Below the pieces are notes generated by a model. It saw only the letters and a list, made by a program, of their open reading frames with translations, was not told the DNA's origin and searched no databases. Made by a program: the position numbers and the translations under genes. Positions 32,053-64,000 of a DNA stretch of 64,000 nt are shown here, in pieces; positions within the stretch are counted from its first letter, which is position 1; every line of letters begins with the position of its first letter. The DNA comes from a virus. The stretch lies in IMG/VR virus record IMGVR_UViG_3300036770_005214, positions 32,001 to 96,000 of that record. One strand, written 5' to 3'.

Positions 32053-32337
32053 ATGGCGTTCACCGTCACCCGTTACCGTGCCAACAACCCGGGCCAGAAT
32101 ACCCGGTACTTCGACATCACCGCCCTCGATGCCGACCTGACCACCACCTTCAACCACAACTGCGGTTGGACCCCGGACGACTGGGATCTCGTCTCGACCG
32201 ACGGCTCCCCCTGCGCCTACGCGGGCGTGTGGCGTGCGCAGGTCAACGCGACCCAGGTCACCATCACCAAGTCCGGTGCGGGTAGCTCGGGCGGCGCGGT
32301 GCGTCTCACCTTGAACCACTCCGCGCTTCGTCCCTGA
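32053..32337 (+). CDS. Small beta-rich protein, putative virion component
   Basis: Strong TAAGGAG RBS; Thr/Val-rich strand pattern. Confidence 0.65.
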   Translation: MAFTVTRYRANNPGQNTRYFDITALDADLTTTFNHNCGWTPDDWDLVSTDGSPCAYAGVWRAQVNATQVTITKSGAGSSGGAVRLTLNHSALRP

Positions 32338-32346
32338 TTCTGGCCT

Positions 32347-32384
32347 GACGAGCCACGAGCGGTTACCGCTGCTCGTGGCTCGTC
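32347..32384 (+). terminator. 14-bp perfect inverted repeat (terminator or RNA-stabilising hairpin)
   Basis: gacgagccacgagc-N10-gctcgtggctcgtc. Confidence 0.7.
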
Positions 32385-32426
32385 TGTGTCTGCCCCTTTC
32401 CCCCCTTCGCACTACCGGGTGGAGCT

Positions 32427-32804
32427 ATGGCGCTGTTTCTTCAGCTTCCCTTCTATGTCCAAGAAACGGCCCTGACCCTCGACGCCCTCTCCAAGACGGG
32501 TGTTGGGGCGGTGCTCCCTGACCAGTGCGGGGCCCTCGGCCTGTACGCCATCTTCGCCTCGACCGGTGTTCCCCCCTTCGGCGCCTACCAGATGTTCTTG
32601 GAGACCCGGATCAGCGGGGCTGCCGAGTGGACCGACACGGGCGAGATCTTCCCGATCGTATCGGCCGCGGGCGTCTACAAGTTCGCGTTCTCCTCGCCCG
32701 TCCTCGATGAAGTCCGCATCCGTGTGGAAGGGACGAACACGGTGGGCGCGGTGGTCCAGTTCACTTGGCTGGCCGACGTAGACGGCCTGACCCTTTCGAC
32801 CTGA
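32427..32804 (+). CDS. Small beta-sandwich-like protein, putative virion component
   Basis: Alternating strand pattern; ETRISGAAEW, EVRIRVEG. Confidence 0.65.
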   Translation: MALFLQLPFYVQETALTLDALSKTGVGAVLPDQCGALGLYAIFASTGVPPFGAYQMFLETRISGAAEWTDTGEIFPIVSAAGVYKFAFSSPVLDEVRIRVEGTNTVGAVVQFTWLADVDGLTLST

Positions 32805-32811
32805 GGCTCGC

Positions 32812-33183
32812 ATGTTCTTCCAGTGTAGCTACCAGAAGGACGTCCGCGACTCCGCGACGGTCCCGGTCGTCGAGCAGATCGACTGGCAGATCCTCCAAGC
32901 CGCAGGCGGCGGGGCGTACCTCGTTGGGAACCTCCGCCAGTTCACCATCGGGACGCTGAACGTCCTGGTGCAGACGAGCCTGGATGGGGTCAACTATGTC
33001 ACGCTGGACAACACCACGCTGACGGCAGTGGACACCACCTACTACTACCGCTACGACGGCCCCATTCCACGCTACCAGCGCATCACGTTGACCCCCGCTG
33101 GGGGCTTCAACGGAACCCTCGCCGTCAACTATTACGGCGCCGCTGACGTGGGAGACATCCCCATCTCCACCCTGGTCCTCTGA
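32812..33183 (+). CDS. Small beta-sandwich-like protein, putative virion component
   Basis: VQTSLDGVNYVTL...PRYQRITLT, a pattern typical of jelly-roll-like modules. Confidence 0.65.
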   Translation: MFFQCSYQKDVRDSATVPVVEQIDWQILQAAGGGAYLVGNLRQFTIGTLNVLVQTSLDGVNYVTLDNTTLTAVDTTYYYRYDGPIPRYQRITLTPAGGFNGTLAVNYYGAADVGDIPISTLVL

Positions 33184-33192
33184 GGTTCCGTC

Positions 33193-33762
33193 ATGGCTGA
33201 CTACCAGGATCGCAGCATCCGTCGGAAGCTCGGTAAGAACCAGACGCTCCCGCACACGCACCATCCCCGTGACGTCCCCGGCGTCCTGTCGGTCGTGAGC
33301 GCACCGGCGTCCCTGATCCCCTTCGACACGTTGGTCGAAGAGGGCGTGACGGTCAACCCGAGCACGAGCGCGGTCGTCTTCTCGGTGCTCGACGAGATGT
33401 TTATCTCGGCGGTCCTCCCGCCCCTCACGACGCCGGCCAACAAGTATCGCGTCCACCTTCGGTTCAACGGCAGCTTCCTGTGCGGCTCCGAGTCGCGGCT
33501 GGAGTTGCAGTTCTTCCAGGGCAACCCGCTGGTGCCCCCGACCGTGGCCATCGGCACTGCGTTGCAGGCGGGCAACCCGGGTGCGGGTGGCATCGCGCAG
33601 ATCCACGCCGTCTCGCTGACGCAGACCTTCGAGGTCGCGCCCGGAAACTACCTGTGGCAGGTGCAGTGGCGCGAGGTCAACGGCCTGCCCGGCAACGCGG
33701 TGGCGAGCGTGGGCGTGCTGCGCCGCTTCGAGGTTGAAGCCGACACGCTGGTCGTAAGCTGA
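33193..33762 (+). CDS. Beta-rich protein, putative virion component
   Basis: APGNYLWQVQWR; in operon. Confidence 0.65.
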   Translation: MADYQDRSIRRKLGKNQTLPHTHHPRDVPGVLSVVSAPASLIPFDTLVEEGVTVNPSTSAVVFSVLDEMFISAVLPPLTTPANKYRVHLRFNGSFLCGSESRLELQFFQGNPLVPPTVAIGTALQAGNPGAGGIAQIHAVSLTQTFEVAPGNYLWQVQWREVNGLPGNAVASVGVLRRFEVEADTLVVS

Positions 33763-34139
33763 TGGCCTACGCGGCAATCGTCACCGTGAAGCAAGTCGGG
33801 CCCGGCGAATACCTCGTCCGGGTCTCGGAAACCGACTGTGGGGCCGCGGACGAGGCCACGATCACCGGGCTTCCCGTTGTGGGTCGCGTGCGCCGCCTGA
33901 CCTGCCAACTGGTTGGCGGGACGGCGGTCTCCGTTGACCCCGTGCTGGCGATGGCCGCTGGTGGAACAGGCGTTGATGCCATCGTCGGGCCGGGCACCCC
34001 CGCGGCCATCGTGACGAGCCTTAGCGCCAACACTTATGCGACGCCCACCGGGGACTCGGTATTCTATCACCGCAGTCAGCCGAACGCGGGCGCCGACAAC
34101 GTGATCGAGACGGTATACAACGTCTCGGGACGTTGGTAG
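33762..34139 (+). CDS. Small beta-rich protein, putative virion component
   Basis: TGATG coupling; Ala/Val/Thr/Gly-rich. Confidence 0.65.
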   Translation: MAYAAIVTVKQVGPGEYLVRVSETDCGAADEATITGLPVVGRVRRLTCQLVGGTAVSVDPVLAMAAGGTGVDAIVGPGTPAAIVTSLSANTYATPTGDSVFYHRSQPNAGADNVIETVYNVSGRW

Positions 34140-34160
34140 AGTTTTGGGAGGAAGGGAAGG

Positions 34161-34706
34161 ATGGAAATCCAAGGTCTGTTGATCGGAGCGGGGCTCGGCT
34201 ACATGCTGGGCGACCAGAAGGACGCGAAGAAGGTTGCGAGCCGCGAGGTGTGGGCCGTTGGTGGCGCCGCCCTGGGGCACCTCCTTCAAGAGCAGATGGG
34301 GCCCAAGCCGGCGCCCGCGCAGTCGCAGGTCGTTGTAGACCCGGGCCTGTCGCACGAGAACGCTCGGCTCAAGCGCGCCCTCGTGGAGACTCGCGCGAAC
34401 CACTCGCGGACGCTCGCGGCGATCGAAACCCAGGTCGACGAACTCTTGGCCGATCGCGAAGAGGCGCCAGCGCCTCGGGTCGCCCGTGCCGCTCGCCAGC
34501 CGGCCGCCGAGCCCGCGCCCCGTCGTCGGGTGGTGTCGCTCGGAACGATGGAGCGTGAGGCGGCACCGTCGCCCGCTCCGAAGCAAGCTCCCAAGGCAGC
34601 CGTCCGGCGCCCCCAACTTCCCGATTACGGGCAGCTTGATGGGCTCCGTGGTGAACTTGCAGAGGCAGACTTGGCCGAAGTGTTCGGCCGAAGCAACACA
34701 AGGTAG
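34161..34706 (+). CDS. Glycine-zipper membrane protein with coiled coil
   Basis: LLIGAGLGYMLG-DQKDAKK-WAVGGAALGHLL; strong RBS. Confidence 0.75.
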   Translation: MEIQGLLIGAGLGYMLGDQKDAKKVASREVWAVGGAALGHLLQEQMGPKPAPAQSQVVVDPGLSHENARLKRALVETRANHSRTLAAIETQVDELLADREEAPAPRVARAARQPAAEPAPRRRVVSLGTMEREAAPSPAPKQAPKAAVRRPQLPDYGQLDGLRGELAEADLAEVFGRSNTR

Positions 34707-34715
34707 GGAGTTACC

Positions 34716-34967
34716 ATGTACTACGTTGGCGAAGTTGGCGGAAACAAGAAGGATGTTGTGGTGCCCGAGCCCAAGATGAAGGTTGACACCACCACCGTTC
34801 TCACCTCCGGTGTGGGCGCGCTGGGCGGCGGCCTCGCGGCTACCGCGGTGGGCCCCTCGCTCGGCCTCAAGGGCAAGAGCGGCAAGACCATCGGCATGGC
34901 GCTCGGCGCCCTGGCTGGGTTCATGTACGACCAGCGCGCGAAGAAGAAGGCCGCTGAGCAGCTCTGA
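34716..34967 (+). CDS. Small glycine-zipper membrane protein
   Basis: GVGALGGGLAATAVG-LKGKSGK-IGMALGALAGFMY. Confidence 0.75.
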   Translation: MYYVGEVGGNKKDVVVPEPKMKVDTTTVLTSGVGALGGGLAATAVGPSLGLKGKSGKTIGMALGALAGFMYDQRAKKKAAEQL

Positions 34968-34989
34968 TCTGTCGACGTAGCGTGTAACC

Positions 34990-35022
34990 AAGGGCCCACG
35001 TCGCTCGCCGCCGTGGGCCTTT
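34990..35022 (+). terminator. Intrinsic terminator-like hairpin
   Basis: aagggcccacg...cgtgggccttt. Confidence 0.6.
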
Positions 35023-35038
35023 GCACTTGGAGGGAGCC

Positions 35039-35701
35039 GTGCCTACTGCCCGTCAGAGCATCGGGATCGCTTTCGTGAAGCTGGGGCAATCCGACGACCC
35101 GGCTATCCGCGCAAAGGGCCGACTGGCCCAGACGCTTTGGGTGCGGTCCTCGACGGAGGATATGTCCCCAGGACGGCTTATCGCGCTCGCGGATGCGTTG
35201 GTCGCCTTGGCGGACGAGCTACCGAGCCCCGAGCCTGACGCGCCCTCCGTGCAGGAAGCATGGGTCGATGTGCGCCCGCAGATCTCCGCGCAGCCGGGAG
35301 AGCCCATCCCCAACTACGGCAAGGCTCTAAGGAGTGTTGCGAGCGCCGGCTTTGCCTACAGCGGTCAGGCCGACGAGACGGACGCCTACCTGGACGAGGC
35401 GGACGAGTTTTACGGTGACGCGGCACCCGAGCAGACCTGGGGCGAATGGGCCGCAGAGAAGGCGGCGGCGCTGGCCTCCCCGGTGACGTCCCGCATCGCC
35501 GCGGCAGAGAAGGCCGTCGCAGACAAGATTGCCGCGGCAGAGAAGGCCGTCGCAGACAAGTTTGCCGAGCTAAAGGAGGCCGCCACCGCTCCGGTGGAGG
35601 AGGGATGGGAAGATCTGAAGAACGCCATGATTGCCATCGGCCTCACGGGCGTTCTGGTGGTGGCGATCAGCGCCTCCGCAGGTAGAGGAAGGCGCCGATA
35701 A
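35039..35701 (+). CDS. C-terminally anchored membrane protein with 11-residue repeat
   Basis: GTG start after GAGGGAG; AAAEKAVADK twice; TM AMIAIGLTGVLVVAI followed by RGRRR. Confidence 0.65.
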   Translation: MPTARQSIGIAFVKLGQSDDPAIRAKGRLAQTLWVRSSTEDMSPGRLIALADALVALADELPSPEPDAPSVQEAWVDVRPQISAQPGEPIPNYGKALRSVASAGFAYSGQADETDAYLDEADEFYGDAAPEQTWGEWAAEKAAALASPVTSRIAAAEKAVADKIAAAEKAVADKFAELKEAATAPVEEGWEDLKNAMIAIGLTGVLVVAISASAGRGRRR

Positions 35702-36980
35702 GGCCGAGGCCCACGAGCACCAGGGCGCCGCCGGCTGCCGCGGGGATGGCACCCAGGGTGTTCGCCCGCACGTTCGCGAGGGGGCCCAGGAACTTGCGCA
35801 TGACGCTGATGTTCGCGTTGGCGGCTTCGGTCCCGAACTGGTCACGCCATGCTGGCCGCTCGATGTCCCGTGCGAAGATCTCCGCCAGAGAGAGCACCGT
35901 CGCCCCGTTCGCGTAGGCCTGACGGAGCCTGTTCCCCCGCTCCCCTTGGTACTCGACGATGATGCGCTGGGTGTTCGCCGTGGGGTCGTGGCGAGCCGCA
36001 GACGACATCCCCGCACCTGCCCCCCTCGCATTGAGTTGGAACAGCCCGCGGCTGTCTTCCGAGCCCGCGGGCACGACGTAGGCGACCGCATCACGGGTCG
36101 AGCCGAAGGCCCATGCGCCACGCCCCGAGATTGCGTTCGTGTCGAGTTGCGACTCGCGGAAGGCGTTGGCGAGTGCGGCCAGCGCGATGCCCGCCGGGAT
36201 GCCCGCACGCGAGAACTCGGCCATGACCACACGCCCGGCGGACATCTGCCGCTCGAAGCGTTCGGGGTACTGGGTGAGATTCGGATAGTTGATGTTCTTG
36301 TTTCGGATCACCGTCTCAAGCGCGGCGTCCGTATCGAAGGCGCCGACGAACACACCGGCCGCCCGCGGAAGGGATGCCAGCATCTCCACCTCTTCGAGCT
36401 TGCCGCGAAGCGCAGACGTGATCCCTTTGAGGTAGTCCGCCGGCGTGCGGATGCCCGCGTTCGCGAGCCGCACCCGCTCCGGGAACACGGTCGAGGGGTC
36501 CTTGTTCATGTACAGCGGGTAGAAGGTGGCCATCGCAATCTTGGCCAGCGTGTCGAGCGGTCCGCCCTCCAGCCGCTCGCGGGCCCGTGCGGCGTAGTAT
36601 CGCTGCACGAGGTCCATCTGCTGCTGCGCATCCATCGCACGGATGGCCCGCGTCGTCGTGCCGAGCCCCTTCGCCGTGCTGGGGGTGAACTGGATCAGCC
36701 CTTGCGCCACGTCGGGGTTGAACGGCTTGACCCCTTTGACGTCCCCATACTGCGCCTTCGGGTTGAACCGCGACTCGTGCTGGATGACCGCTGCAAGGTG
36801 CGCCGGGTTCGCGCCGAGGCTCCGCGCCACCTCGATGATCTTCAGCATGAGGGTGAGCGGTGGCGGCGACCCGGTGTAGTCCCGGTAGTAGGGCTGAAGC
36901 GTGCTCGCGAGCCGCACGTCTCGCGATATGCGGTAGGGCTCGGTCGCCTCTGCAAAGCTGGGGGACGGTGCGGTAGACAT
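35667..36980 (-). CDS. Membrane-anchored protein with two lysozyme-superfamily (lytic transglycosylase-like) domains
   Basis: VIQHESRFNPKA...QGLIQF; ANAFRESQLDTNA...SRGLFQL; C-terminal TM plus LRRR. Confidence 0.85.
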   Translation of the reverse strand: MSTAPSPSFAEATEPYRISRDVRLASTLQPYYRDYTGSPPPLTLMLKIIEVARSLGANPAHLAAVIQHESRFNPKAQYGDVKGVKPFNPDVAQGLIQFTPSTAKGLGTTTRAIRAMDAQQQMDLVQRYYAARARERLEGGPLDTLAKIAMATFYPLYMNKDPSTVFPERVRLANAGIRTPADYLKGITSALRGKLEEVEMLASLPRAAGVFVGAFDTDAALETVIRNKNINYPNLTQYPERFERQMSAGRVVMAEFSRAGIPAGIALAALANAFRESQLDTNAISGRGAWAFGSTRDAVAYVVPAGSEDSRGLFQLNARGAGAGMSSAARHDPTANTQRIIVEYQGERGNRLRQAYANGATVLSLAEIFARDIERPAWRDQFGTEAANANISVMRKFLGPLANVRANTLGAIPAAAGGALVLVGLGLIGAFLYLRRR

Positions 36981-37009
36981 GGGATAGACCCCTTCTCGGG
37001 AGGATAACC

Positions 37010-37690: not shown

Positions 37691-37692
37691 GC

Positions 37693-38403
37693 TCACCCGA
37701 TCTTCTGGTTGCGGACGGTGAGGGGCATCGCCAGCGACCAGTTGCCTTGGTCGGCGATCGCTTGCAAGGCATCCATGCGGTACACCGTCTTCTGCACCAG
37801 CGGGTTGCTATTCCCCGCGAGCCATGCACGGCGGGCGGCGATGTAGGCACGCGTCCAGGCCTTCTCGTCGCCTCCGTTCGCGGGGCTCTTCTCGGGGAAC
37901 TTGGCGCGGATGGTGTCAACGCCCTTCGGACCCGAGTGGATGCAGGTGTCGTACAGCACCAACACCGTCAGGGCGTGGCAGGCCTTCACGGCTTCCGCGT
38001 GGGCCATCGCCGGGGCGAAGTATTGCTCGTCGAATACCTCGTCCTGGGCCCTCTGCATGACCGGATCGGTGCCGGCGGCCTTCAGGGCGTCGATCAACTG
38101 CTGAACCGGCGCGGTGTACGGTCCGCCCGGCGTCTCTTTTGTGGACACGTTCCCGGCCAGGGTCGCCTCGTGGAGCCGAAGCTCGGCAGCGAGCCGGCCG
38201 CCGAGGGCGATGTACCGCTTCACCACGGCATCCAGGCTCCCGGCCTTGTCGGTACACTGGTGCTTTCCGTAGGAGATACCTGCGCCATCCTTCAGAATGG
38301 TGCAGGTGGCGTAGCTCGCCGCCGACGGAACCTTGCCCGTCTCGAAGATGGAGAGAACGCAGTCGATAACGTGCTTCTGGTCGTGTGACAGTTGCAGTGG
38401 CAT
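37693..38403 (-). CDS. GH46 chitosanase-like / lysozyme-fold endolysin
   Basis: IFETG...DGAGISYGKHQCT...DPVMQRAQ...YDTCIHSG. Confidence 0.8.
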   Translation of the reverse strand: MPLQLSHDQKHVIDCVLSIFETGKVPSAASYATCTILKDGAGISYGKHQCTDKAGSLDAVVKRYIALGGRLAAELRLHEATLAGNVSTKETPGGPYTAPVQQLIDALKAAGTDPVMQRAQDEVFDEQYFAPAMAHAEAVKACHALTVLVLYDTCIHSGPKGVDTIRAKFPEKSPANGGDEKAWTRAYIAARRAWLAGNSNPLVQKTVYRMDALQAIADQGNWSLAMPLTVRNQKIG

Positions 38404-38410
38404 GGGTCCC

Positions 38411-39301
38411 TCAAACGCTGAAGCGGACGACGCCGCGGATGTTGCTCGCCTTCACGTTGCGCTCGACATACTTGGCGGTGTCCCCCAGGTTTCCGCCCAC
38501 GCACGCGAGCGTGGTGGCGTCCTTCCACCCCAAGATCAGGTCCGTGTGGCCCGCCTTGGTCGCCGAGCCACCCGCGTCCGATCCCGACCCTTCCCGCGAC
38601 TGGAGCAGCAGCGAGCCCGTCAGGACCTCCGAGCCGGTGAGGGCCGATGCAGGCGTCCACAGCCCGAGCTTCTTCCCCTCGTCCTCTTGGCCCTGCGCCG
38701 CTCCGAACCAGTTTTTGAGCGGGTGCGCCGACCACGCCGAAGGGGTCGCCCAACGGAGCCCCATCGCTTCCGCCTGCGCCCACTGCGCCGACAGGGCGCA
38801 CCACGCGAGCCCCGTCCCCGCCTTGTCCTTCGCGATCGCGTAGTGCTCGACGTACTCGCCGACCAGCCCCGAGAGGGCCGGGCCCCGGTTGGAGGACGCC
38901 GGATTCTCGCGGATGCCGATGATGCTGACCATCGCCAGGGCCGCCGCACGCTGCACGGCGGATGCCCGGGGGTCGATCGCCCGCGTGGCCGTCTCCTGGC
39001 TCCCCTTGACCCAGGACTGCTCCGCCTGCTCGGCACGCAGCGCCAGCCGCCAGGGTGCTTCCGGCTGGTCAGGCGCCGGCGGGAGGCCCGTTGGTTGGGC
39101 CAGCAGCGACGCCCACGTCTTCTCTTCGACCACACCGTCTGCGGTCAGCTTCTTGGCGCCCTGGAACTGGATCACCTTGGCCTCGGTCCCGGGGCCGAAG
39201 CCCCCGTCCGCCGTGCAGGCGAACCCGTGCGCGGTCAGGCGCTCCTGACAGAGCTTGACGTCAGACCCCTGTGAACCCTTACGAATGGTCGCTTGCGGCA
39301 T
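38411..39301 (-). CDS. Peptidoglycan-binding domain plus CHAP/NlpC-P60-like amidase
   Basis: GSQGSDVKLCQERL..DGGFGPGTE..FQ...ADGVV; AWCA, GHT, GGN. Confidence 0.85.
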   Translation of the reverse strand: MPQATIRKGSQGSDVKLCQERLTAHGFACTADGGFGPGTEAKVIQFQGAKKLTADGVVEEKTWASLLAQPTGLPPAPDQPEAPWRLALRAEQAEQSWVKGSQETATRAIDPRASAVQRAAALAMVSIIGIRENPASSNRGPALSGLVGEYVEHYAIAKDKAGTGLAWCALSAQWAQAEAMGLRWATPSAWSAHPLKNWFGAAQGQEDEGKKLGLWTPASALTGSEVLTGSLLLQSREGSGSDAGGSATKAGHTDLILGWKDATTLACVGGNLGDTAKYVERNVKASNIRGVVRFSV

Positions 39302-53694: not shown

Positions 53695-55221
53695 TCACCG
53701 ATACCGACGGGTGCGGAGGGATTCTCCCCCAAAGGCGGCTTGTACTGCTGCGGCCCCTTGATCCAAAGCGCCCTGGAGTGCTGCGAGCAGTGCCGCCACT
53801 TCAGCGTCACCCGAGACTGCGGGCGCCGGTGCGGGAGCCGGTGCGGGGGTCATGGTCATGGGGGGAGGCGCCACGGTCACGACGGGGGGCGGCGGCTCCT
53901 CGATCACAACCGGAGCGACCGGGACCGACACGGGCGCCTGCACGGGCCGCGCCGGCACGTCCGCATCGAACTGCGGAAGGAAGGACGGGGCCACCTTGGC
54001 GATGTGCTTTCGGAAGTTGGCACGAACCACCGGGATCATTCCGGCAAGGAACGCAGCCCCACGTCCATCGGCCACCGCCGCACGGTAGTCGTTCAGCATC
54101 GCGTCAAACTTGCTGGGCGCGGCTGGTGCGGCTGGTGCGGGCGGAGGGCGAACCGGTGCGGGCGGAGGGCGGACCGGTGCGGGGGTCGGAGCGGGCGCCG
54201 GGGTCGGAGCGGGCGCCGCGGCCCGGTAGGCCTTCGCGGCGTTGTAAAGCTCCCGCACCTCGGGCGAGGCCTTCGACGCCATGAGGCCGCCGATGCCCCG
54301 GCGATCGGGGATCGAAAGGCTGCCAAGCCAAGCGTTCAAGTGGGCGAGGTCGTTGCCGGTCTTGCGGGCCTCGGCGAGGAACTGGGTGATCAAGCTCGCC
54401 TCCTGGGGGGCTACCGCTTGCTGCTTGATGCTGTCCATGACGGCCTTGAAGACCTCGCGGACTTCGGAGGGAGTGTCCCCCCGCCGCATCTTGCCAGCGA
54501 GCACCGCACGGGTCGGACCCGGCATGGCCATGACGTAACTCACCGCGCCGCCAAAGCCCCCTGCGTTGTAGGCATCGGCGAACGCCACGACGACCGGATC
54601 GGGCTGCGCCATGACGGGAGGCGCCTCGACGGCCATCGGGGGCGCCTCGACGAACACGGGAGCGGCTTGCACGACTGGCGGCGAGTAGACGACGGTGGGC
54701 GTCGGCGCTTCGACCATCGCGAGGGCCGGGGGAACCTCGGGAGCGGGGCGCTGACGGCGGGCGGGGCGCTGGCCAGCCGGCTTGGTCGGCTTCGCCACGT
54801 CGCGACGCAGCCCCATCTCGGCGCTGGTCATCGGGAGCGGCGAGCACCGAGCGGGGGGAACGCCCTCGGCCGGCTCGCGGTGCTGCTCGGTGGTCCCGTT
54901 GATGTGGTAGGTCTTCGACTCGAACTCACCCGTCGTGTCGGTGAAGTCGACGCGAAGCTCCACATCATACGCGAGGCACTCGCCCACACGCTCCCGCACG
55001 ACCTGGAGCGCCTGCGCCTTGCTGGTCAACTCGACCTGCCCGCTCTGCGCCTCCAGCTTGGTGCCGCTGCGGTTGTACGCAAGCTGCTGGACTACCCAGA
55101 CCCACTTGGGGCGGTTCCGCGCACCCTCCGCCGTGACGGGCTCGATGGCGAGGATCAACAAGGCCTTGGCGTTCGGATGACTCGGCTTCATCGGAGGACC
55201 CCGAAAACAGTTGGGGGGCAA
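53695..55221 (-). CDS. Pro/Ala-rich protein with repeated small helical domains
   Basis: PA-rich linkers separating three helical units of about 55 aa; start uncertain (ATG 55191 possible). Confidence 0.7.
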   Translation of the reverse strand: MPPNCFRGPPMKPSHPNAKALLILAIEPVTAEGARNRPKWVWVVQQLAYNRSGTKLEAQSGQVELTSKAQALQVVRERVGECLAYDVELRVDFTDTTGEFESKTYHINGTTEQHREPAEGVPPARCSPLPMTSAEMGLRRDVAKPTKPAGQRPARRQRPAPEVPPALAMVEAPTPTVVYSPPVVQAAPVFVEAPPMAVEAPPVMAQPDPVVVAFADAYNAGGFGGAVSYVMAMPGPTRAVLAGKMRRGDTPSEVREVFKAVMDSIKQQAVAPQEASLITQFLAEARKTGNDLAHLNAWLGSLSIPDRRGIGGLMASKASPEVRELYNAAKAYRAAAPAPTPAPAPTPAPVRPPPAPVRPPPAPAAPAAPSKFDAMLNDYRAAVADGRGAAFLAGMIPVVRANFRKHIAKVAPSFLPQFDADVPARPVQAPVSVPVAPVVIEEPPPPVVTVAPPPMTMTPAPAPAPAPAVSGDAEVAALLAALQGALDQGAAAVQAAFGGESLRTRRYR

Positions 55222-55237
55222 GTGGCCCGCTATAGAC

Positions 55238-55266
55238 CCCTTACCCCCCTTCTATCCGTAGGTCAA
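55238..55266 (-). promoter_or_regulatory. Class B promoter (TTGACC-N17-TAAGGG)
   Basis: Minus strand ttgacctacggatagaaggggggtaaggg; same G-run before -10 as the 41.9 and 43.3 kb promoters. Confidence 0.5.
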
Positions 55267-55317
55267 TCCCTTCACAGGTCCGACCGACCTAGCCCCGCCT
55301 GCTGCGAGGCTTTACGG

Positions 55318-57294
55318 TCAACGCTTCGACGTCCGACGCTTGGGGGCGGACCGCTTCTTGACCGCGCCGTGCTTCCGACGAGCCGTGCGGAGCGCCGCCT
55401 CCGCCACCACATCGCCAACCGCGGGGAGAGCCGCAGAGGACTTCGCCTTGGTGGTCTTGGCCTTGGTGGTCTTGGCCTTGGTGGTCTTGGCAGGCCGCGC
55501 CTTGATGCTGCGCTCCCCGGGGAGCTTGCGCTTGGGGTTCTCCCGAACCCAGTTGTCCTGCGCAATACTCAAGGGGTAGCCCATCTTAATCTGGGCCGCG
55601 ATGTACTTCTGGTAGCTGGTCCTGCGGGTTCCGGCCTTCGCCTTGGAGGCCTTGGTGCTCTTGCCCTTGGTGCTCTTGCCCTTGGTGGTCTTCTTGATCA
55701 CTTCGGTCTTCGCAGTCTCGCCCTTGTGAGCCCGCCAAGCCGCCGCCGCTTCCTTCATGGACTTGCCAGCCTTACGCTGCGCGGCCACGAACTTGTTGTA
55801 GGCGCTGACCTTGCGGGTTCCAGACTTCGCCTTGGAGGCCTTCGGCTTCGCGGTCTTCGGCTTCGAGGTCTTCGGCTTCGCGGTCTTCTTCACAGTCTTC
55901 TTGGCGGTCGTGCCGGACTGCGCACGCCATGCGGCTGCCGCCTGCGCCATCGTCTTGCCAGCCTTCATCTGGGCCCCGACGAACTTGTTGTAGGCGCTGA
56001 CCCCAGCCCCGGTCGTCAGTTCCGAGAGCCCAGCGGCCATCACAGCTTCATCCCACTCCCTCTTCTCCCTTTCAGTCATAGCGTTGGAACGACGACGACG
56101 AGCACCCGCTCCCAGCCCCCCGCCCACTGGGCGCCCTGGCAGATTGTTGACCCACTCATCGAGATACTTGTTGTAGGCGCTGACCTTGCGGGTTCCCGTC
56201 TTGCGGGTCTTGCGGGTCTTGCGGGTCTTGCGGGCCTTACGGGCCTTGGGCGCCGCCTCCGCGGCGGTGGTGGTCTTGGCCTTGGTGCTCTTCGCCTTCC
56301 GACGTACCGTGACCTTGGTTCCAATCCGCTTCTTCGTGGACTTGGTGCAGACGTAGCGGGTGCCTTCCTTGGTGTAGGTGCAGACCTCCTTCGAGCCCTC
56401 CACCGTCATCACCACCTGGACGCCAGTGCGGCACCAAGCGCGGATGAGGCGCTGGAGACCCTTCTTCTGGGCCGCAGCAGAGCCTTCCAGCGACCCCGTG
56501 ACGGTCTTGGTGCCCCGACGCACGCTCACAGAGCGAACGCCATCCTTTGCGGCTCCGATGTGGATCCGAACCGACGTAATCTTCCTGGCCATAGCTCGCT
56601 CCTTATTGCCTTCTTCGGCGGCGATGTGGGTTGCCCGACGGCTCCCGGCAAGGGTGCTCGACGAGACGATGCGGTCACCCCGCTTGACGTAGGTGTACTG
56701 CCGTCCAGACTCCTCGTCCTCGACAAGGACCTTGGAACCTGGAGTAGCCCACTTTTCGATCAGTTCTTGCATCACAGAACGCTGCGCCCTCGCATCGCCC
56801 ATGAGCGGAGTGTTGCTGTACTTGTCTTTCCCAGTGCTGGGATCGGTGTAAGTGACCTGCACAAAGCGCAGGCGCTTGCCGTCCTCTTTCGTGACGACCA
56901 TGCGGACCAAGTAGACGTGGCCCTCAACGACCTTCCGCTTGGCTTTCTTGGGGCTCTTGCCAGCAGAGTCGGCGCTCTTCATGGACCCTCCGCGCGGGGA
57001 CACCGGGGCGAAACTGCCATCGTCCTGCCGGCCGTAGGTCACGGTCTTTCCAGTCGCCTCGTAGGTGACGATGACCTTATTGCCCTTGTACCTCTGAATC
57101 TGATCTTCAAGGTCCGCTCGCCGTTCGGCCTCCGTATTGCCCCGGATAAAAGTCCCTTGGCCAGAGATCCGCTCTCCCCGTGCGCCCAGTTGTTGAACGC
57201 TCACATTCCGCCGTAGGTTGTGAACGCTCTTGCCCACGGACATCCGAACCAAACTGACCGCGACTGACTTCCGTGCAGGCATCCGATCTCCCAA
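55318..57294 (-). CDS. Very basic DNA-condensing protein: histone H1-like K/A/T repeats plus HMG-box/YABBY-like repeats
   Basis: KTAKPK and KTTKAK repeats; SAYNK[FY] three times (two followed by AAAAWRA) plus TSYQKY. Confidence 0.7.
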   Translation of the reverse strand: MGDRMPARKSVAVSLVRMSVGKSVHNLRRNVSVQQLGARGERISGQGTFIRGNTEAERRADLEDQIQRYKGNKVIVTYEATGKTVTYGRQDDGSFAPVSPRGGSMKSADSAGKSPKKAKRKVVEGHVYLVRMVVTKEDGKRLRFVQVTYTDPSTGKDKYSNTPLMGDARAQRSVMQELIEKWATPGSKVLVEDEESGRQYTYVKRGDRIVSSSTLAGSRRATHIAAEEGNKERAMARKITSVRIHIGAAKDGVRSVSVRRGTKTVTGSLEGSAAAQKKGLQRLIRAWCRTGVQVVMTVEGSKEVCTYTKEGTRYVCTKSTKKRIGTKVTVRRKAKSTKAKTTTAAEAAPKARKARKTRKTRKTRKTGTRKVSAYNKYLDEWVNNLPGRPVGGGLGAGARRRRSNAMTEREKREWDEAVMAAGLSELTTGAGVSAYNKFVGAQMKAGKTMAQAAAAWRAQSGTTAKKTVKKTAKPKTSKPKTAKPKASKAKSGTRKVSAYNKFVAAQRKAGKSMKEAAAAWRAHKGETAKTEVIKKTTKGKSTKGKSTKASKAKAGTRRTSYQKYIAAQIKMGYPLSIAQDNWVRENPKRKLPGERSIKARPAKTTKAKTTKAKTTKAKSSAALPAVGDVVAEAALRTARRKHGAVKKRSAPKRRTSKR

Positions 57295-57333
57295 GGTACC
57301 GCACCGTTGGTATCAGAATGGGCCTTGAAACTG

Positions 57334-57366: not shown

Positions 57367-57411
57367 GTGCGCGGCGCGAATAGGATGTGAGCCAGGAAAC
57401 TAGGCTGTCAG

Positions 57412-58086: not shown

Positions 58087-58087
58087 C

Positions 58088-58408: not shown

Positions 58409-58457
58409 CCCTTATGGGGTAACGCGCCCCTTCCTGATACGCCACAACCCTTATGGG

Positions 58458-59218: not shown

Positions 59219-59221
59219 GCG

Positions 59222-59500
59222 TCACTCCCCCGCGTCGCCGCGAGAGGGCCAATCCAACAGGTTGTAGTTTTGGTACAACTTGTCGATGTCCACGCCGACG
59301 TCCGCCAGCTTCTCTTCCTTCCGCCGGAGCTTCGCGACTTCGCGCTCAATCCGAATGTGCTGCTTGAGGACGTCCTGGGTCCGCCGCCGAATCTTGTTGA
59401 CCTCGCGGACCTCCGCCGGATCCCAGAAAGCGCCCACCGCGTTGTGTTGCCACATGCCTAACTCCTCTAGTTGTTTGTACTTTTCTTGGAAGTCGTACAC
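59222..59500 (-). CDS. Small coiled-coil protein
   Basis: Coupled start; alternative ATG 59455 after GAGGAG. Confidence 0.6.
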   Translation of the reverse strand: MYDFQEKYKQLEELGMWQHNAVGAFWDPAEVREVNKIRRRTQDVLKQHIRIEREVAKLRRKEEKLADVGVDIDKLYQNYNLLDWPSRGDAGE

Positions 59501-60435
59501 TACACATCCGCGAAGATGACCACCGAACCGCCGTCCGTTGGCTCCACTTGCAAAGCACCGCGAGCCTTCGTGTTGATGCCGTACTTCAGCGCCTTGGCAA
59601 GGGCCAGATTGTTAATCATCGTCGCCTTGTCGGGAGCATGGGTCACCGTGACCGCCGAGCCGTCAAAGCGGTTGTTGTCGACGATGACCGTGCTCTCCCG
59701 AGGTTCCGAGACGGGGTAGCCGTTTTCCGCCAGAATGGTGCTGAACTCGGTCACCGCATCGGCCACCGCCCCGACGTAGCCCGTCCCAGGGGTAGCCGGC
59801 GTGGTCACATAGCGGTTGATCAGGAAGCCCACGAGCGCCCCGATCCCAGTCGCCACCCCGCGGTTCTTGCGGGCCACCGCATAACCAACCCCAGCCCCCA
59901 CGAGCGAGTACAAGAGCGGGCCTGCTTCAGTCCCGAACCCCGCCGCCGCCGCGTCCTTCTTCTTGAACTTCTCCCGCACCGAGGTCACCGCCTTGGCGGT
60001 CCCTTGCTTCACGCTAGAGGCTGCTTTCGCAGTCCCTTGCTTCACACTGTAGGCCACCTTGTCAGCTACCTCGCCAGACTTGCGGAAGAACAGGCGACCG
60101 CCGACAGCGTGCAGGCGCCCATAGGGTCCGGGCACCTTGTCGGCGCGCAAGAGCGCGGCCGTAGTCTCGTTCACCTTGTCGGACAAGTGCTGAAGCTCTT
60201 TGTAGAAGGGAGTACGGCTTTGCTTCCCATTCGGGTCTTTCTTCAGAACGTAGGCGGAGAAGAACGCGTTTAGTTTCGAGACGGCTCTTTCGATCTCCTG
60301 GAGATTCCCGGAGCCCATGCCGTACTCGTACATGGAAGTCTGCAAACCCACCAGCGGAGACGGATCAGCGTCGTAAGCGGTATTGTAGAAGTCCTCGACA
60401 GCGCCCACCGAGCTAATCATCCCGATGCGTTGCAT
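59500..60435 (-). CDS. Glycine-zipper membrane protein (paralog of 60462-61037, with extra C-terminal domain)
   Basis: LLYSLVGAGVGYAVARKNRGVATGIGALVGFL. Confidence 0.75.
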   Translation of the reverse strand: MQRIGMISSVGAVEDFYNTAYDADPSPLVGLQTSMYEYGMGSGNLQEIERAVSKLNAFFSAYVLKKDPNGKQSRTPFYKELQHLSDKVNETTAALLRADKVPGPYGRLHAVGGRLFFRKSGEVADKVAYSVKQGTAKAASSVKQGTAKAVTSVREKFKKKDAAAAGFGTEAGPLLYSLVGAGVGYAVARKNRGVATGIGALVGFLINRYVTTPATPGTGYVGAVADAVTEFSTILAENGYPVSEPRESTVIVDNNRFDGSAVTVTHAPDKATMINNLALAKALKYGINTKARGALQVEPTDGGSVVIFADV

Positions 60436-60461
60436 GTGCGTCTCTCCAGGTCAGTAAGGGA

Positions 60462-61037
60462 CTATTGCCGTAGGGCTTGGTTGGCCAGGAAGCCCACGAG
60501 CGCCCCAACACCAGCGGCCATTCCGCGGTTCTTGCGGGCCACCGCGTAGCCGACACCCGCTCCCATGAGCGAGTACAACAGCGGCGCCGAGTCAGACCCG
60601 AACCCAGCGGACTCGGCCCCCTTCCCAGCGCGGGGCTGGACCCCTGGACCCAGAGAGACCCGCGCTCCAGGATCCCGGAAGGACAGACGACCGTTGGTAA
60701 CGGTAAGACGCCCATGTGGGCCGGGCACCCCGTCGCGTCGCAGATCGAACGCCACGAGTTGATTCACTGCGGCAGCGTATTCTTCAAGCTCTTTATAGAA
60801 CAAGTCACGAGGCTTGCCCGAGGCCTCTTTCTCTGAAACGTAGTCAGAAAAATAATCGTTCACTTTCTTGATCTCAAACTGAACATCCCCGATGCCCCTT
60901 TCGCCTCGGTACATCATAAGAATGGTCTGCTTCAAGGAATCGTAGGCTCTTCCCCCAGGACCGGGGGAGATAGCGTTCTCCCAAGCGTACAATCCCCTGG
61001 CCTCGCTCACTGACCCAATCATTCCGATGCGTTGCAT
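60462..61037 (-). CDS. Glycine-zipper membrane protein
   Basis: LLYSLMGAGVGYAVARKNRGMAAGVGALVGFL. Confidence 0.75.
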   Translation of the reverse strand: MQRIGMIGSVSEARGLYAWENAISPGPGGRAYDSLKQTILMMYRGERGIGDVQFEIKKVNDYFSDYVSEKEASGKPRDLFYKELEEYAAAVNQLVAFDLRRDGVPGPHGRLTVTNGRLSFRDPGARVSLGPGVQPRAGKGAESAGFGSDSAPLLYSLMGAGVGYAVARKNRGMAAGVGALVGFLANQALRQ

Positions 61038-61052
61038 GTGCAGATCTCCGAG

Positions 61053-61370
61053 TCAGTAGCAGGAGCTACTGCCGTAGGGTTGTGGCCCACAATGTAGCGC
61101 ATCGTAGACAAGGGATTCCATGCGACGGCGGCCCGGTCCGCCCATCCCGCCGAGGTCAGCGTGGAGGAGGTAACCGTCCTCGTCGAAGGTGAAACGCTCC
61201 GGGAAGCGATCTTCCAAGAGCGAGGCCAGTTGGATGCGGCGAGCACCCAAGCGGAGGATACGCGCACGGTACGGCCCGAGGTTGCGCCCCACCGCTCGCG
61301 CACGCTGGTACTTCGACGATGCGACGTCGAGGCTGCGCAGCACCAGCATGTAGCGGTTGAACAGGGCCAT
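61053..61370 (-). CDS. Hypothetical protein
   Basis: ATG 61370, in operon. Confidence 0.55.
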   Translation of the reverse strand: MALFNRYMLVLRSLDVASSKYQRARAVGRNLGPYRARILRLGARRIQLASLLEDRFPERFTFDEDGYLLHADLGGMGGPGRRRMESLVYDALHCGPQPYGSSSCY

Positions 61371-61399
61371 CTGCTCTCGTTCCGTTTGCACGCGAACCC

Positions 61400-62296
61400 C
61401 TAGATAGAGCGGCCGGCGGCACGCCGACGTCGTGACTGGTCCATGTACCAACGGGGCACCGGCATCCCGAGCACCGCTGACGGGTCGTCGTAGACCACGC
61501 TTCCATCCGGCTGACGGATCTTCGTCACCGCATGGAACAGCCGCACGCCCGAGCCGCCGCCCATCCCGGAAGCGGGGCCCTCAATCAAGCGGCAGTACAC
61601 GCTGGCGTCGTGGCCAGCGTTGATCAGTTCGCCCGCACGGTAGGCGGCGAGGCCTTCGCAGTCGTCATGCCCGCGGCGAGCGATCTCTTCGGCATCCCAC
61701 CACAACTCGGGCGACCCCTCGGTCTGATACCGGATGCTCCCCGAGTACAACCGGGGGAGACCCTTCGCCTCGATCTGCTTCGCGTTGTGACGTGCGATGG
61801 CGTTGTTGATGTCGACCACCGGAGACGCCGTGGAGTCGTCGATGGTCAGCATCATGTACTCGTTGGTCCGGCCCCGGTCGCCCGGCACCCGAACCCGCTC
61901 GCCCCCCGCGAACCCCATCACGGCGCCCGAGCCCGAGACGTACACGGGGCGACCGCTCTCGAAGCCGATGCGGGCCGCCGAGTCCTCGCCATAGATGCGT
62001 TCTTCGGCAGTCCGCCACGCCGCCAGCGTGCCCGCGGTCACACAGCCATCCTTGGAGGCCGTCACCGCGTCCCGCCACACGCCGTCGGTGCAGTTCACAC
62101 GGCTCGGCGCACGGGGCACACGCCCCGCCCGGATCGAGCGCATGTTCCGCTGGACAAGGCCTTCCATGACGTCCGCGAGCGCCTGCTGACCACCATGCAC
62201 GTTCAGCACGACCCGCATCCCGTCCTGCCGTGGGGGCAGTGGATGGGGGTCACGCTTCAGGATGGAGCCAGTCAGGCCGATCGCGATCTCGTTCAC
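61400..62296 (-). CDS. Transglutaminase-like (papain-fold) Cys enzyme with tandem domains
   Basis: DDCEGLAAYRAGEL...FHAV...YDDPS (Cys-His-Asp). Confidence 0.7.
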   Translation of the reverse strand: MNEIAIGLTGSILKRDPHPLPPRQDGMRVVLNVHGGQQALADVMEGLVQRNMRSIRAGRVPRAPSRVNCTDGVWRDAVTASKDGCVTAGTLAAWRTAEERIYGEDSAARIGFESGRPVYVSGSGAVMGFAGGERVRVPGDRGRTNEYMMLTIDDSTASPVVDINNAIARHNAKQIEAKGLPRLYSGSIRYQTEGSPELWWDAEEIARRGHDDCEGLAAYRAGELINAGHDASVYCRLIEGPASGMGGGSGVRLFHAVTKIRQPDGSVVYDDPSAVLGMPVPRWYMDQSRRRRAAGRSI

Positions 62297-62320
62297 GGAA
62301 ACCCCCGCCCGGATGGGCTG

Positions 62321-62647
62321 TCAGTAGTGACGGCGGTGGTGGAGACGACCGACGTACATGCCCTCAGCGGCGGCGGGAGCAGCCTCCTCCGCGTTTGCTT
62401 TCGCTTCCGCGATGAGCCGGTCAGATTCCAAACGCTCCTCGGACTTCCGACGGCCCAGGACCGGGACCCCTGCTGCGGGCTTGCCCATGATCATGGGGAG
62501 GACGGTCTTGCCGGCCACAGCACCGATGACGCCGTACAGGGCGGCGCGGGGCAGGGTGCCCTTGCCCGAGCCCTTCATCGCGTAGCTGGCACCGACACCG
62601 ATGGCGGCGCCGATCAAGAGGTTCCGGTCTTTGAGCATATCCAACAT
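62321..62647 (-). CDS. Glycine-zipper membrane protein
   Basis: LLIGAAIGVGASY-MKGSGKG-ALYGVIGAVAG; AGGAG RBS. Confidence 0.75.
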   Translation of the reverse strand: MLDMLKDRNLLIGAAIGVGASYAMKGSGKGTLPRAALYGVIGAVAGKTVLPMIMGKPAAGVPVLGRRKSEERLESDRLIAEAKANAEEAAPAAAEGMYVGRLHHRRHY

Positions 62648-62684
62648 GGTCTTCTCCTAAGGGGCGGAAGGGGGTGAGAGGGGA

Positions 62685-63452
62685 CTAGAAGTAGATCTGA
62701 CCGATGTAGTGGAAGCCTTCGGCTTCGGCCTCATCGCCTTCCGCAACCAACTCGTCGATTGCTGCTTGCCGACGGTCGGCGGCCATCTGAGCGAGGATGT
62801 CATCGTCGTCTTCATCGCCTTCCGCGATCAGGTCAGCGGTTCGCCGCTCTGCGAGTTGGCGCTGAGCTTCCGCTGCATCCTCTGCTGCTTTACGGGCGGC
62901 TCGCTGGGCGTTTTGGGTCTCCCGACTACCCCGTTCCTCCGCTTCACGGGCGGCCTCCAACTCTGCCGCAGCTTTGCGCTGCAACTCCTCCGCAGCCCTG
63001 AGGGCGTCTGCTGCTTTCCTCGCCTCACGAGCGGCCCGGTCGGCATCTCGTTGGGCCTCCGCAGCTTCCAGGTTCAACGCTTGGCGCGCTTGCAGTTCTT
63101 CAGCCTTGGTCAAAGCACGATTCGCACCTGCCCTGCGGATGGCCGTCACGGGGGACATCGCGGCCTTTTTGGCAGCGACCGCAGCCTTGTTCACCGCGAT
63201 CGTGCGACGACGAGCGGCCTCTAGCTTGGCCTGCTTGGCGTTCTGCTCGGCGAGCGCCAACTGCTCCTGGGGCGACAGAGGGCGCTGGGGCAGGAGCATC
63301 CGGCCGGCAGCCGCCCCGATGGCGCCGAACACCGCAGCGCGGACGAGGGATCCCTTTGCAGGTCCGCCGACTGCGTAGCTGGCGACAACACCCAACGCGA
63401 GACCCGTCAGGGTGCTTGGGTTGGTCAGTCCGAGGGATTCGAGGGTGGCCAT
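62685..63452 (-). CDS. Glycine-zipper membrane protein with long Ala-rich coiled coil
   Basis: GLALGVVASY-GGPAKGS-AVFGAIGAAAG. Confidence 0.75.
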   Translation of the reverse strand: MATLESLGLTNPSTLTGLALGVVASYAVGGPAKGSLVRAAVFGAIGAAAGRMLLPQRPLSPQEQLALAEQNAKQAKLEAARRRTIAVNKAAVAAKKAAMSPVTAIRRAGANRALTKAEELQARQALNLEAAEAQRDADRAAREARKAADALRAAEELQRKAAAELEAAREAEERGSRETQNAQRAARKAAEDAAEAQRQLAERRTADLIAEGDEDDDDILAQMAADRRQAAIDELVAEGDEAEAEGFHYIGQIYF

Positions 63453-63466
63453 GATGGTTCCTGCGG

Positions 63467-63913
63467 CTAGTAGGAGGTCTGGTTCAACACGCGAGCGGCC
63501 TGCGCACGGTGCTGGGGACGGATGTAGGACGCGAACTTGGTGGCCGTGGCGGCGACGACCGCGGCGTCATCGGCGGGGCCGGGGACGTCCACGGGGTTGA
63601 CGATGTAGAGCAGGGCGCCCGCGATCGACAGCTTCGCAGCCATGGGGGTCTCGGGGTCAAGCATGACGTAGTACAGCGCGACCACTTCGTTCGAGAAGGG
63701 GACGTGACCCGCGATGGCGAGAAGCCGGGGAAGGACCCGCTGCGCCTTGCCGAGATCTTTCGTCGAGGCCGCTGGGACGGACAGACGGTCGAGCGAGGAC
63801 GAGCCCCACGACGCCACCGACAGCCGCTCGGGCAGCCCGTAGAAGCCCCCAGACGCCCGCTTGCCGCGGGAGCCTACCGAGAGCCGTTCCGGGAGCCCGT
63901 AGAAGGTCGCCAT
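63467..63913 (-). CDS. YkvA/DUF1232-family membrane protein
   Basis: LYYVMLDPETPMAAKLSIAGALLYIVNPVD.PG..DDAAVV. Confidence 0.8.
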   Translation of the reverse strand: MATFYGLPERLSVGSRGKRASGGFYGLPERLSVASWGSSSLDRLSVPAASTKDLGKAQRVLPRLLAIAGHVPFSNEVVALYYVMLDPETPMAAKLSIAGALLYIVNPVDVPGPADDAAVVAATATKFASYIRPQHRAQAARVLNQTSY

Positions 63914-64000
63914 CACTGCACCAGCGACGCGACGAGGTAGCCCACACCAGCACCGATGGCAGCCGACTGGATCCGGCGCCCGGAGCCGCCCAGCAGGAGG
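63913..64000 (-). CDS. 3' end of a glycine-zipper protein (truncated by window edge)
   Basis: LLLGGSGRRIQSAAIGAGVGYLVASLVQ*, TGATG-coupled to the DUF1232 gene. Confidence 0.6.
   Translation of the reverse strand, partial: LLLGGSGRRIQSAAIGAGVGYLVASLVQ

Follow-up and report, generated by a model that had tools for sequence, protein, structure and literature searches.

The 64,000-nucleotide stretch considered here (the window) comprises bases 32001-96000 of the 108,122-bp IMG/VR virus contig IMGVR_UViG_3300036770_005214, and the question that it raises is what kind of virion is specified by a virus whose genes include a set of glycine-zipper hairpin proteins and a membrane-anchored transglycosylase. 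To our knowledge, large bacterial virus genomes all come from tailed phages. Bacterial jelly-roll viruses that contain a membrane are known only with genomes of 7-18 kb (PMC5894146). Our analyses indicate that the window is the central part of the genome of a bacterial double-stranded DNA (dsDNA) virus that is not a conventional tailed phage, and we give a probability of about 0.5 to the reading that it represents a new lineage of jelly-roll viruses that are large, tailless and probably equipped with a membrane. The gene content, its conservation, two protein folds (as structure models) and the absence of detectable tailed-phage hallmarks are established directly; a tailless jelly-roll virion with a virus-specified membrane is the most economical reading, and the icosahedral shell, the membrane and the mode of packaging are features that we infer.

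The first 121 bp of the contig recur at positions 107985-108105, so that its ends overlap, and the record probably closes on itself and represents a complete genome with a circular map, for which CheckV gives a completeness of 92%. The record is labelled linear in IMG/VR, and its last 17 bp do not extend the 121-bp repeat (L001:1-121; L003:15985-16122); these 17 bp are probably an assembly-end artefact. The guanine-plus-cytosine (GC) content is 60-71% throughout, no tRNA genes are present in the genome, and 115 genes (g1-g115) were predicted by a scorer of codon usage and ribosome-binding sites. Homologues of g101, a protein of 227 amino acids (aa), were found in 22 metagenomic clusters and in two IMG/VR relatives, viz. 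G001 (178,164 bp, with a clean 126-bp end overlap) and G002 (117,752 bp, with a clean 127-bp overlap), both of which have 64% GC and are complete genomes. In an all-against-all comparison the three genomes have in common a core of replication genes, a 906-aa protein, a methylase-helicase and an integrase, and on the virion side only g101, g100, g94 and the small g55, g56 and g58. The g101-g100-g94 trio is the best-conserved non-replication block, the identities to the relatives being 46-51% for g101, 26-41% for g100 (251 aa) and 43-47% for g94 (298 aa, a Cys-His-Asp enzyme), and g94 is syntenic in the relatives with the other two, which are the jelly-roll genes described below. A scan of 185,579 reference genomes for the g101 and g94 families found no relative and gave no clue to the host. 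The use of Shine-Dalgarno sites and the presence of peptidoglycan hydrolases suggest a bacterial host, and the endolysin genes together with fibre/spike proteins argue for a lytic virion rather than a plasmid.

In tailed phages the large terminase (TerL) and the portal are usually more conserved than the capsid protein and are the easiest to detect. PHROG and/or Pfam scans, made individually or in sets, covered about 107 of the 115 predicted proteins, none of which matched a family of terminase, portal, capsid, scaffold, tape-measure, tube, sheath or baseplate proteins; eight short open reading frames (ORFs; 80-167 aa, at contig 24.4-26.9, 45.6-45.9, 55.7-56.1 and 63.5-63.9 kb) were covered by six-frame hallmark searches only. 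These searches were independent of gene calls, and the profiles PF03237 (Terminase_6N), PF03354 (TerL_ATPase), PF04860 (Phage_portal), PF05065 (Phage_capsid) and PF01580 (FtsK_SpoIIIE) gave nothing above cut-off in the three genomes, the sole large-terminase match (12.3 bits) lying within an SNF2 helicase. The absence of hallmark genes is thus established at the level of hidden Markov model (HMM) and BLAST comparison, i.e., at sequence level. For the portal and the HK97-fold capsid there was no PHROG or Pfam family and no six-frame match to PF04860 or PF05065, and neither of the two proteins that we modelled (g101 and g100) has the HK97 fold. For the tail tube, sheath, tape measure and baseplate, the only matches were fibre/spike-type proteins and a weak tape-measure match (E 2e-4) that falls on an SMC-like ATPase of the replication module. 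From the relatives, 85 large proteins were scanned against PHROG, with five proteins straddling locus borders left out, and gave no hallmark family among the matches listed (25 of 45 families, including every match stronger than about E 3e-9), and the three-genome comparison contains no conserved large unassigned protein able to be TerL or portal. The initial annotation had seen no terminase, portal, tape measure or tail gene in the window, and this is borne out for the window and equally for the contig of 108 kb as a whole: genes for TerL, portal, HK97 capsid and tail, the finding of which elsewhere on the contig would speak against a tailless virus, were absent from the 108 kb and from both complete relatives in these searches. 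Its statement on tail genes is correct as regards the tube, sheath, tape measure and baseplate; adhesins are an exception, as large fibre/spike-like proteins are encoded outside the window at contig 1.4-12.6 kb.

The P-loop (Walker-A) proteins that were found are the primase-helicase, SNF2, Dda, MoxR, Sak4/AAA_24, SbcC-like, UvrD and methylase-helicase proteins, and every one of them is assignable to DNA replication or repair or is MoxR. The only conserved P-loop protein of small size (window 8618-9667) was weighed as a candidate for the packaging ATPase and rejected, its orthologues matching AAA_24/Sak4 (E 5e-12). The two proteins of 614 and 620 aa at the head of the virion operon were likewise considered as TerL and portal and rejected, as they are without Walker A, are not conserved and have an unsuitable composition (Pro/Ala repeats, coiled coil, and poly-acidic or Gln/Pro-rich tails). 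A type IV secretion system, in which the transglycosylase would act with hairpin 'pilins', was dropped since no VirB4- or VirD4-like ATPase appeared in any scan.

What takes the place of these hallmarks is a virion operon that runs leftward from contig 103449 (103.4 kb) to about 85 kb (window ~53-64 kb and beyond), together with a rightward cluster at window 32-35.7 kb. The conserved genes of this operon include two candidate jelly-roll capsid proteins encoded just outside the window, viz. g101 with a single jelly roll and g100 with a tandem, double-type one. Features are given one per line, in window coordinates unless the contig is named.

Contig 97884-98567, minus strand: g101, 227 aa, basic arm and single jelly roll (structure model).

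The model of g101, built with 23 sequences, has a predicted local distance difference test (pLDDT) score of 72, with a core of about 90, and begins with a short hairpin, after which come two helices (the first of them Arg-rich), a jelly roll of eight strands and a final helix at the C-terminus. The g100 family consists of 51 clusters in 1.84 billion representatives, all of about 220-290 aa, and the g100 model (251 aa; 53 sequences; pLDDT 86.7, pTM 0.79) contains two tandem jelly rolls (residues 35-156 and 157-251). In a Foldseek search of the PDB its top match is the phiCjT23 capsid protein (E 4e-6), followed by the capsid proteins of STIV, PBCV-1, PRD1 and PM2 among other tandem sandwiches. 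Rigid superposition of the whole g100 tandem succeeds only with double-jelly-roll proteins; with SIDT1 the alignment is confined to one domain, and with XepA the root-mean-square deviation is 21.6. The structures 4kq7 and 7v1v are established cellular homologues with a double jelly roll (PMC8812541). The profiles of the two families show no relation to each other (hhalign), a tblastn search with g101 against 50,697 phage records gave nothing useful, and no meaningful match to PDB sequences came from profile searches with the families of g101, g100, the Cys enzyme and the Sak4-like protein. Directly after the g101 stop codon, between g101 and g100, lies a strong terminator (L003:5798-5833, minus strand; a 16-bp stem with 11 G-C pairs and a T7 tail), which suggests that the operon yields g101 in the largest amount, with expression far above that of the downstream genes.

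The operon opens with the two non-conserved low-complexity proteins mentioned above, of which the 614-aa protein carries Pro/Ala repeats, a coiled coil and a poly-acidic tail and the 620-aa protein a Gln/Pro-rich tail (an Atlas search with the latter gave no usable match). They are followed by g102, a membrane protein with a strongly basic N-terminus, which precedes g101 and g100; downstream of g100 come hairpin, coiled-coil and acidic-tailed proteins, then g94, then more hairpin proteins, and at the end of the run two large basic or Pro/Ala-rich proteins.

61400-62296, minus strand: g94, 298 aa, conserved Cys-His-Asp enzyme with transglutaminase/papain-like motif order; orthologues in both relatives.
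53695-57243, minus strand: g84 (498 aa, Pro/Ala-rich) and g85 (641 aa, Lys/Arg-rich), end of the operon run; no PHROG/Pfam family.

The invariant motifs of g94 are DDCEGLAAYRA, RLFHA and VYDDPS, and no match to it was found in Pfam, PHROG or PDB sequences; it is a candidate maturation protease or cross-linker. Repeated SAYNKF-type units are found in g85, and counterparts of g84 and g85 in the same style are present in the same module of G001 and G002, and we regard these very basic, low-complexity proteins as candidate DNA-condensing core proteins.

Six consecutive proteins of this module (g95, g96, g98, g99, g102 and g103; window 62321-64000 plus L003:3913-9493, i.e., contig 94321-101493) carry the motif AEG-(L/F/M)-x-x-(I/V)-G, usually after an acidic run. 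The N-termini of g88, g91 and g99 read M-x-R-I-G and those of g94 and g103 x-I-A-I-G, the latter being kept in the g94 orthologues. These recurrent motifs may represent a cleavage or docking signal.

The membrane proteins form the second part of the argument. The initial annotation had listed seven ORFs with glycine-zipper hairpins, and all seven, with the loops that it quoted, are present in the translations.

34161-34706, plus strand: g59, 181 aa, N-terminal glycine-zipper hairpin, loop DQKDAKK; sub-threshold PF05433 and PF13488.
34716-34967, plus strand: g60, 83 aa, glycine-zipper hairpin, loop KGKSGK; fits the hairpin pattern; PF13441 15.5 bits, below cut-off.
59500-60435, minus strand: g91, 311 aa, glycine-zipper hairpin, loop RKNRG; fits the hairpin pattern.
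60462-60935, minus strand: g92, 157 aa, glycine-zipper hairpin, loop RKNRG; fits the hairpin pattern.
62321-62647, minus strand: g95, 108 aa, N-terminal glycine-zipper hairpin, loop KGSGKG.
62685-63452, minus strand: g96, 255 aa, N-terminal hairpin, long coiled coil and acidic tail, loop GPAKGS.
63913-64374 (contig 95913-96374), minus strand: g98, 153 aa, C-terminal hairpin, loop GSGRR; the window holds its 3' part; fits the hairpin pattern.
35039-35701, plus strand: g61, 220 aa, C-terminal anchor (hydrophobic residues 196-212), ends RGRRR.

All of the listed ORFs are of coding type, with GC at third codon positions (GC3) of 0.76-0.90 versus 0.41-0.56 at second positions (GC2). A strict pattern of two zippers with a polar loop is matched by seven of the 115 proteins, six of which are true hairpins, whereas 200 residue shuffles gave a mean of 1.2 and a maximum of 5. 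BLAST identifies g91/g92 and g95/g96 as paralogue pairs, the remaining hairpin proteins being alike in architecture only. The Pfam glycine-zipper families (PF13488, PF13441 and PF05433) match four ORFs below threshold (12-17 bits versus cut-offs of 24-29), the best being PF13488 with 17.2 bits versus 25 for the g95/g96 entry, so that no gathering threshold was reached; the likeness to these families is architectural only. The C-terminally anchored proteins that had also been predicted are present, viz. g61 and the transglycosylase g62, and altogether the virion module contains at least eight small membrane proteins with a hairpin or a single anchor. This gene content gives indirect signs of a possible internal lipid membrane.

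The rightward cluster begins with five consecutive small ORFs, continues with g59-g61 and has as its neighbour a minus-strand gene for a lytic transglycosylase, beyond which lie the putative lysis enzymes.

32053-32337, plus strand: g54, 94 aa, first of the five small ORFs; GC3 0.87; no PHROG/Pfam family; no orthologue in G001 or G002.
32427-32804, plus strand: g55, 125 aa, candidate structural protein of small size, conserved, with orthologues in both relatives.
32812-33183, plus strand: g56, 123 aa, conserved small protein; orthologue in G001.
33193-33762, plus strand: g57, 189 aa, small ORF; GC3 0.90; no family match.
33762-34139, plus strand: g58, 125 aa, conserved small protein; orthologues in both relatives.
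35667-36980, minus strand: g62, 437 aa, lytic transglycosylase (SLT domain) with C-terminal membrane anchor.
37693-39301, minus strand: g64 and g65, putative lysis enzymes (GH46-like; peptidoglycan-binding endolysin); probable source of matches to PF01374, PF01471 and several PHROG endolysin families.

The five ORFs had been described as beta-rich; their coding nature and the conservation of three of them (g55, g56 and g58) stand, and their beta-richness is a judgement by eye. The conserved ones, each of about 125 aa, are candidate vertex or cementing proteins. Weak profile similarity links g55 and g56 (hhalign E 0.009), and no relation was found between the small-ORF profiles and those of the g101 and g100 families. 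For g56 and g58, tblastn against the 50,697 phage records gave nothing useful, and among isolated phages g56 has nothing beyond one chance-level match. In an Atlas feature search the nearest neighbours of g58 are unnamed viral proteins of 121-129 aa (score 0.91-0.92), which serve as a lead only. The prediction of a membrane-anchored transglycosylase proved correct: in g62 the SLT profile PF01464 scores 44.5 bits against a cut-off of 21.3 (residues 50-110), thus above the gathering threshold, PF18013 (Phage_lysozyme2) scores 39.8 bits, and a hydrophobic segment at residues 418-434 is followed by RRR. In PHROG, g62 matches lytic domains from hub proteins, internal virion proteins and endolysins. 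Its SLT homologues in G001 adjoin hairpin proteins, so that the association of transglycosylase and hairpin family extends across the clade. The matches to PF01374, PF01471 and endolysin families, obtained with a set of proteins (A2), appear from a reading of the sequences to belong to g64 and g65.

Taken as a tailless jelly-roll virus, the system could work as follows. A jelly-roll protein shell would assemble on a virus-specified lipid vesicle studded with hairpin proteins, the genome would be condensed by basic proteins and not pumped in by a terminase, and on infection the membrane-anchored transglycosylase would open the peptidoglycan, like P7 of PRD1. The basic proteins and the Arg-rich arm of g101 suggest such a condensation-driven encapsidation. 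The PRD1-like model of the initial annotation is supported in part: the lack of tailed-phage hallmarks and the capsid candidates (a basic-armed single jelly roll and a tandem one) agree with it, whereas the FtsK/A32 ATPase that it predicts was not found and the membrane is deduced from gene content. Several points weigh against our reading. No FtsK/HerA/A32-type ATPase was detected (PF01580, six-frame, three genomes), and the encapsidation of more than 100 kb of DNA without one is hard to account for; double-jelly-roll viruses lacking a packaging ATPase do exist, but the Odin group and FLiP are small-genome lineages only, and known prokaryotic double-jelly-roll viruses in general have genomes of 7-18 kb (PMC5894146). 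The single-jelly-roll g101, and not the tandem g100, is likely the most abundant protein, which is a poor fit to a simple PRD1 scheme. Single domains of both models match GOLD, CBM, PirA and SIDT1 sandwiches equally well or better, and both the membrane and the particle itself are read from genes.

Other objections bear on the alternative that survives best, although we consider it rather unlikely, namely a tailed phage (Caudoviricetes) whose hallmarks have diverged past HMM detection, the jelly rolls being decoration, cement or baseplate proteins and the hairpins holins, exclusion or injected proteins. Contig 1.4-12.6 kb (L001:1472-12560, minus strand) encodes seven large Gly/Thr/Ser-rich proteins, several with repeats resembling a beta-helix, which we read as putative receptor-binding fibres or spikes; g4 and g5 are paralogues, and g6-g9 have a common N-terminal adaptor (MALRSP...YWG...LP...GDTA), an arrangement resembling that of tailed phages with multiple tailspikes. 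One of them, g9, belongs to phrog_1645 'virion structural protein' (E 1e-87), which it shares, at ~39% identity, with T4-like cyanophages and the Puniceispirillum podovirus HMO-2011. Proteins of tails and baseplates are among the BFVD matches of the tandem jelly roll, and the Atlas neighbours of g58 are mostly labelled Uroviricota, its nearest named family being Bbp16 of BPP-1 at a chance-level score of 0.80. Folds were predicted for two virion-module proteins only, and among the others a very divergent HK97-fold protein is possible. On the other hand, TerL and portal are normally the best-conserved proteins of tailed phages, yet neither PHROG and Pfam nor the six-frame searches revealed one in the three complete genomes. 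Every P-loop protein that turned up has an assignment, and the two candidates by position (614 and 620 aa) are of low-complexity and coiled-coil type and lack conservation. No large unassigned protein is conserved between the three genomes, as against identities of 26-51% for the two jelly-roll proteins.

An enveloped or pleomorphic nucleoprotein particle, with basic proteins coating the DNA, hairpins in the envelope and jelly rolls as matrix or spike, appears unlikely as well, even though it would account for the failure to find a packaging ATPase of any type, for the abundance of Lys/Arg-rich proteins in a style conserved across the clade, for the many membrane proteins and for the Arg-rich arm on the most strongly terminated gene. 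The rigid superposition of the g100 tandem on double-jelly-roll proteins only is at odds with such a particle, and a dedicated Cys-His-Asp enzyme with small conserved accessory proteins fits capsid maturation instead. The bacterial and archaeal pleomorphic viruses known to us have genomes below ~20 kb and no jelly-roll proteins.

The large replication and repair set includes PolA, a DUF3987 primase-helicase, SNF2, Dda-like and UvrD helicases, a PD-(D/E)XK nuclease, an SbcC-like ATPase, HNH, MoxR with vWA, and methyltransferases, and further genes encode RadC, DnaJ and peptidoglycan hydrolases.

43494-44501, plus strand: g74, tyrosine integrase (phrog_216, phrog_1; E 2e-16), conserved in the three genomes.
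47239-53340, minus strand: g82, 2033 aa, DarB-like methyltransferase-helicase (phrog_11801, E 8e-110; phrog_10089, E 2e-50), in the three genomes.

A large plasmid or integrative element without a virion, with the glycine-zipper proteins acting as pore-forming toxins, as bacteriocin-like peptides or in exclusion, is very unlikely. It is true that mobile elements typically show a circular map, an integrase, a recombination directionality factor (RDF)-like match, an anti-restriction methylase-helicase, RadC and DUF2958, all of which are present here, and that the hairpins have sub-threshold similarity to Pfam glycine-zipper families known from bacterial envelope proteins. However, no conjugation or partition genes were seen, there are endolysin genes, multiple receptor-binding-type proteins and an own PolA replication module, the lack of relatives among the reference genomes gives no sign of chromosomal or plasmid residence, and the hairpin genes are co-oriented and interleaved with the conserved block of jelly-roll and candidate protease genes. 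The toxin or exclusion function mentioned in the initial annotation is possible for individual hairpins but leaves unexplained their co-orientation with the capsid-candidate block.

Some additional observations concern proteins common to the clade. The 906-aa protein (window 24080-26800, minus strand), present in the three genomes and without a Pfam or PHROG family, shows by eye GHKL-ATPase-like N-terminal motifs and a C-terminal HEIAH zinc-protease motif. A domain related to Pfam GP88/phrog_7964 is common to g44, g48 and g97 (window 13979-16549, 19804-23664 and 63467-63913) and to giant proteins of the relatives, which reach 3025 aa in G001 (62039-71116) and in the relatives adjoin the orthologues of g55, g56 and g58. 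At window 5911-8519 (plus strand) the gene for a MoxR-type AAA+ ATPase (phrog_19600, E 4e-62) precedes that for a protein of 479 aa (phrog_24053), and another vWA protein is encoded at L002:13447-15978.

Among known systems, phiCjT23/FLiP (Finnlakeviridae), PM2 (Corticoviridae), PRD1 (Tectiviridae) and STIV are compact double-jelly-roll viruses with an internal membrane, the corresponding features being predicted here from genes. In size (251 aa) and two-domain arrangement the g100 model matches the phiCjT23 capsid chain (239 aa) and P2 of PM2 (269 aa), and as in double-jelly-roll viruses there are a neighbouring protein modelled with a single jelly roll, many small membrane proteins and a virion-type lytic transglycosylase; the lack of a packaging ATPase is shared with FLiP and the Odin group (PMC5894146). 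Unlike these systems, the present viruses have genomes of 108-178 kb versus 7-18 kb (PMC5894146), no detectable sequence similarity to them, PolA with a large replication/repair set in place of PolB or a rolling-circle Rep, no FtsK/A32 ATPase, basic histone-like proteins and a Cys-His-Asp enzyme. The genome differs from that of every characterised membrane-containing phage in its size, its PolA-based replication module and its lack of an FtsK/A32 ATPase. Viruses of the Sphaerolipovirus type (P23-77 and HHIV-2), with two single-jelly-roll capsid proteins, likewise have two adjacent conserved jelly-roll genes, and their known members contain a membrane; here, however, the second protein is a fused tandem, there is no adjacent ATPase gene and the genome is about six-fold larger or more. 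The Pfam glycine-zipper families (PF13488, Gly-zipper_Omp; PF13441, Gly-zipper_YMGG; PF05433, glycine zipper 2TM) likewise have two Gly-x3-Gly-rich helices with a short polar or basic loop, but the scores lie below the curated cut-offs, and here the hairpin forms part of viral proteins that are otherwise unrelated and bear coiled coils and acidic tails.

By analogy only, the large genome, the basic core proteins, the cysteine enzyme in the morphogenesis module and the short Gly-containing motifs recurring in many virion-module proteins resemble adenovirus and the large eukaryotic double-jelly-roll viruses. Unlike adenovirus-type systems, the present genome has bacterial signals (Shine-Dalgarno sites and peptidoglycan hydrolases) and no A32/IVa2 ATPase, and the residue order of g94 is Cys-His-Asp versus His-Glu-Cys in adenain. 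The broader proposal of an unrecognised high-rank lineage of bacterial viruses of 108-178 kb, which would combine a jelly-roll shell made of a compact double jelly roll and an Arg-armed single one, a virus-specified membrane and a histone-like core and would package more than 100 kb without a terminase or an FtsK-type motor, is put forward tentatively, as something that we consider possible but doubtful. If true, it would raise the question of how 100 kb of DNA is packaged without a recognisable motor, the mechanism of encapsidation would be new for large dsDNA viruses, and virus detection and classification based on hallmark genes can mislabel or overlook such genomes. It would also mean that a clade of complete 108-178 kb genomes bridges the small prokaryotic and the giant eukaryotic jelly-roll viruses, as a bacterial counterpart of the large eukaryotic ones.

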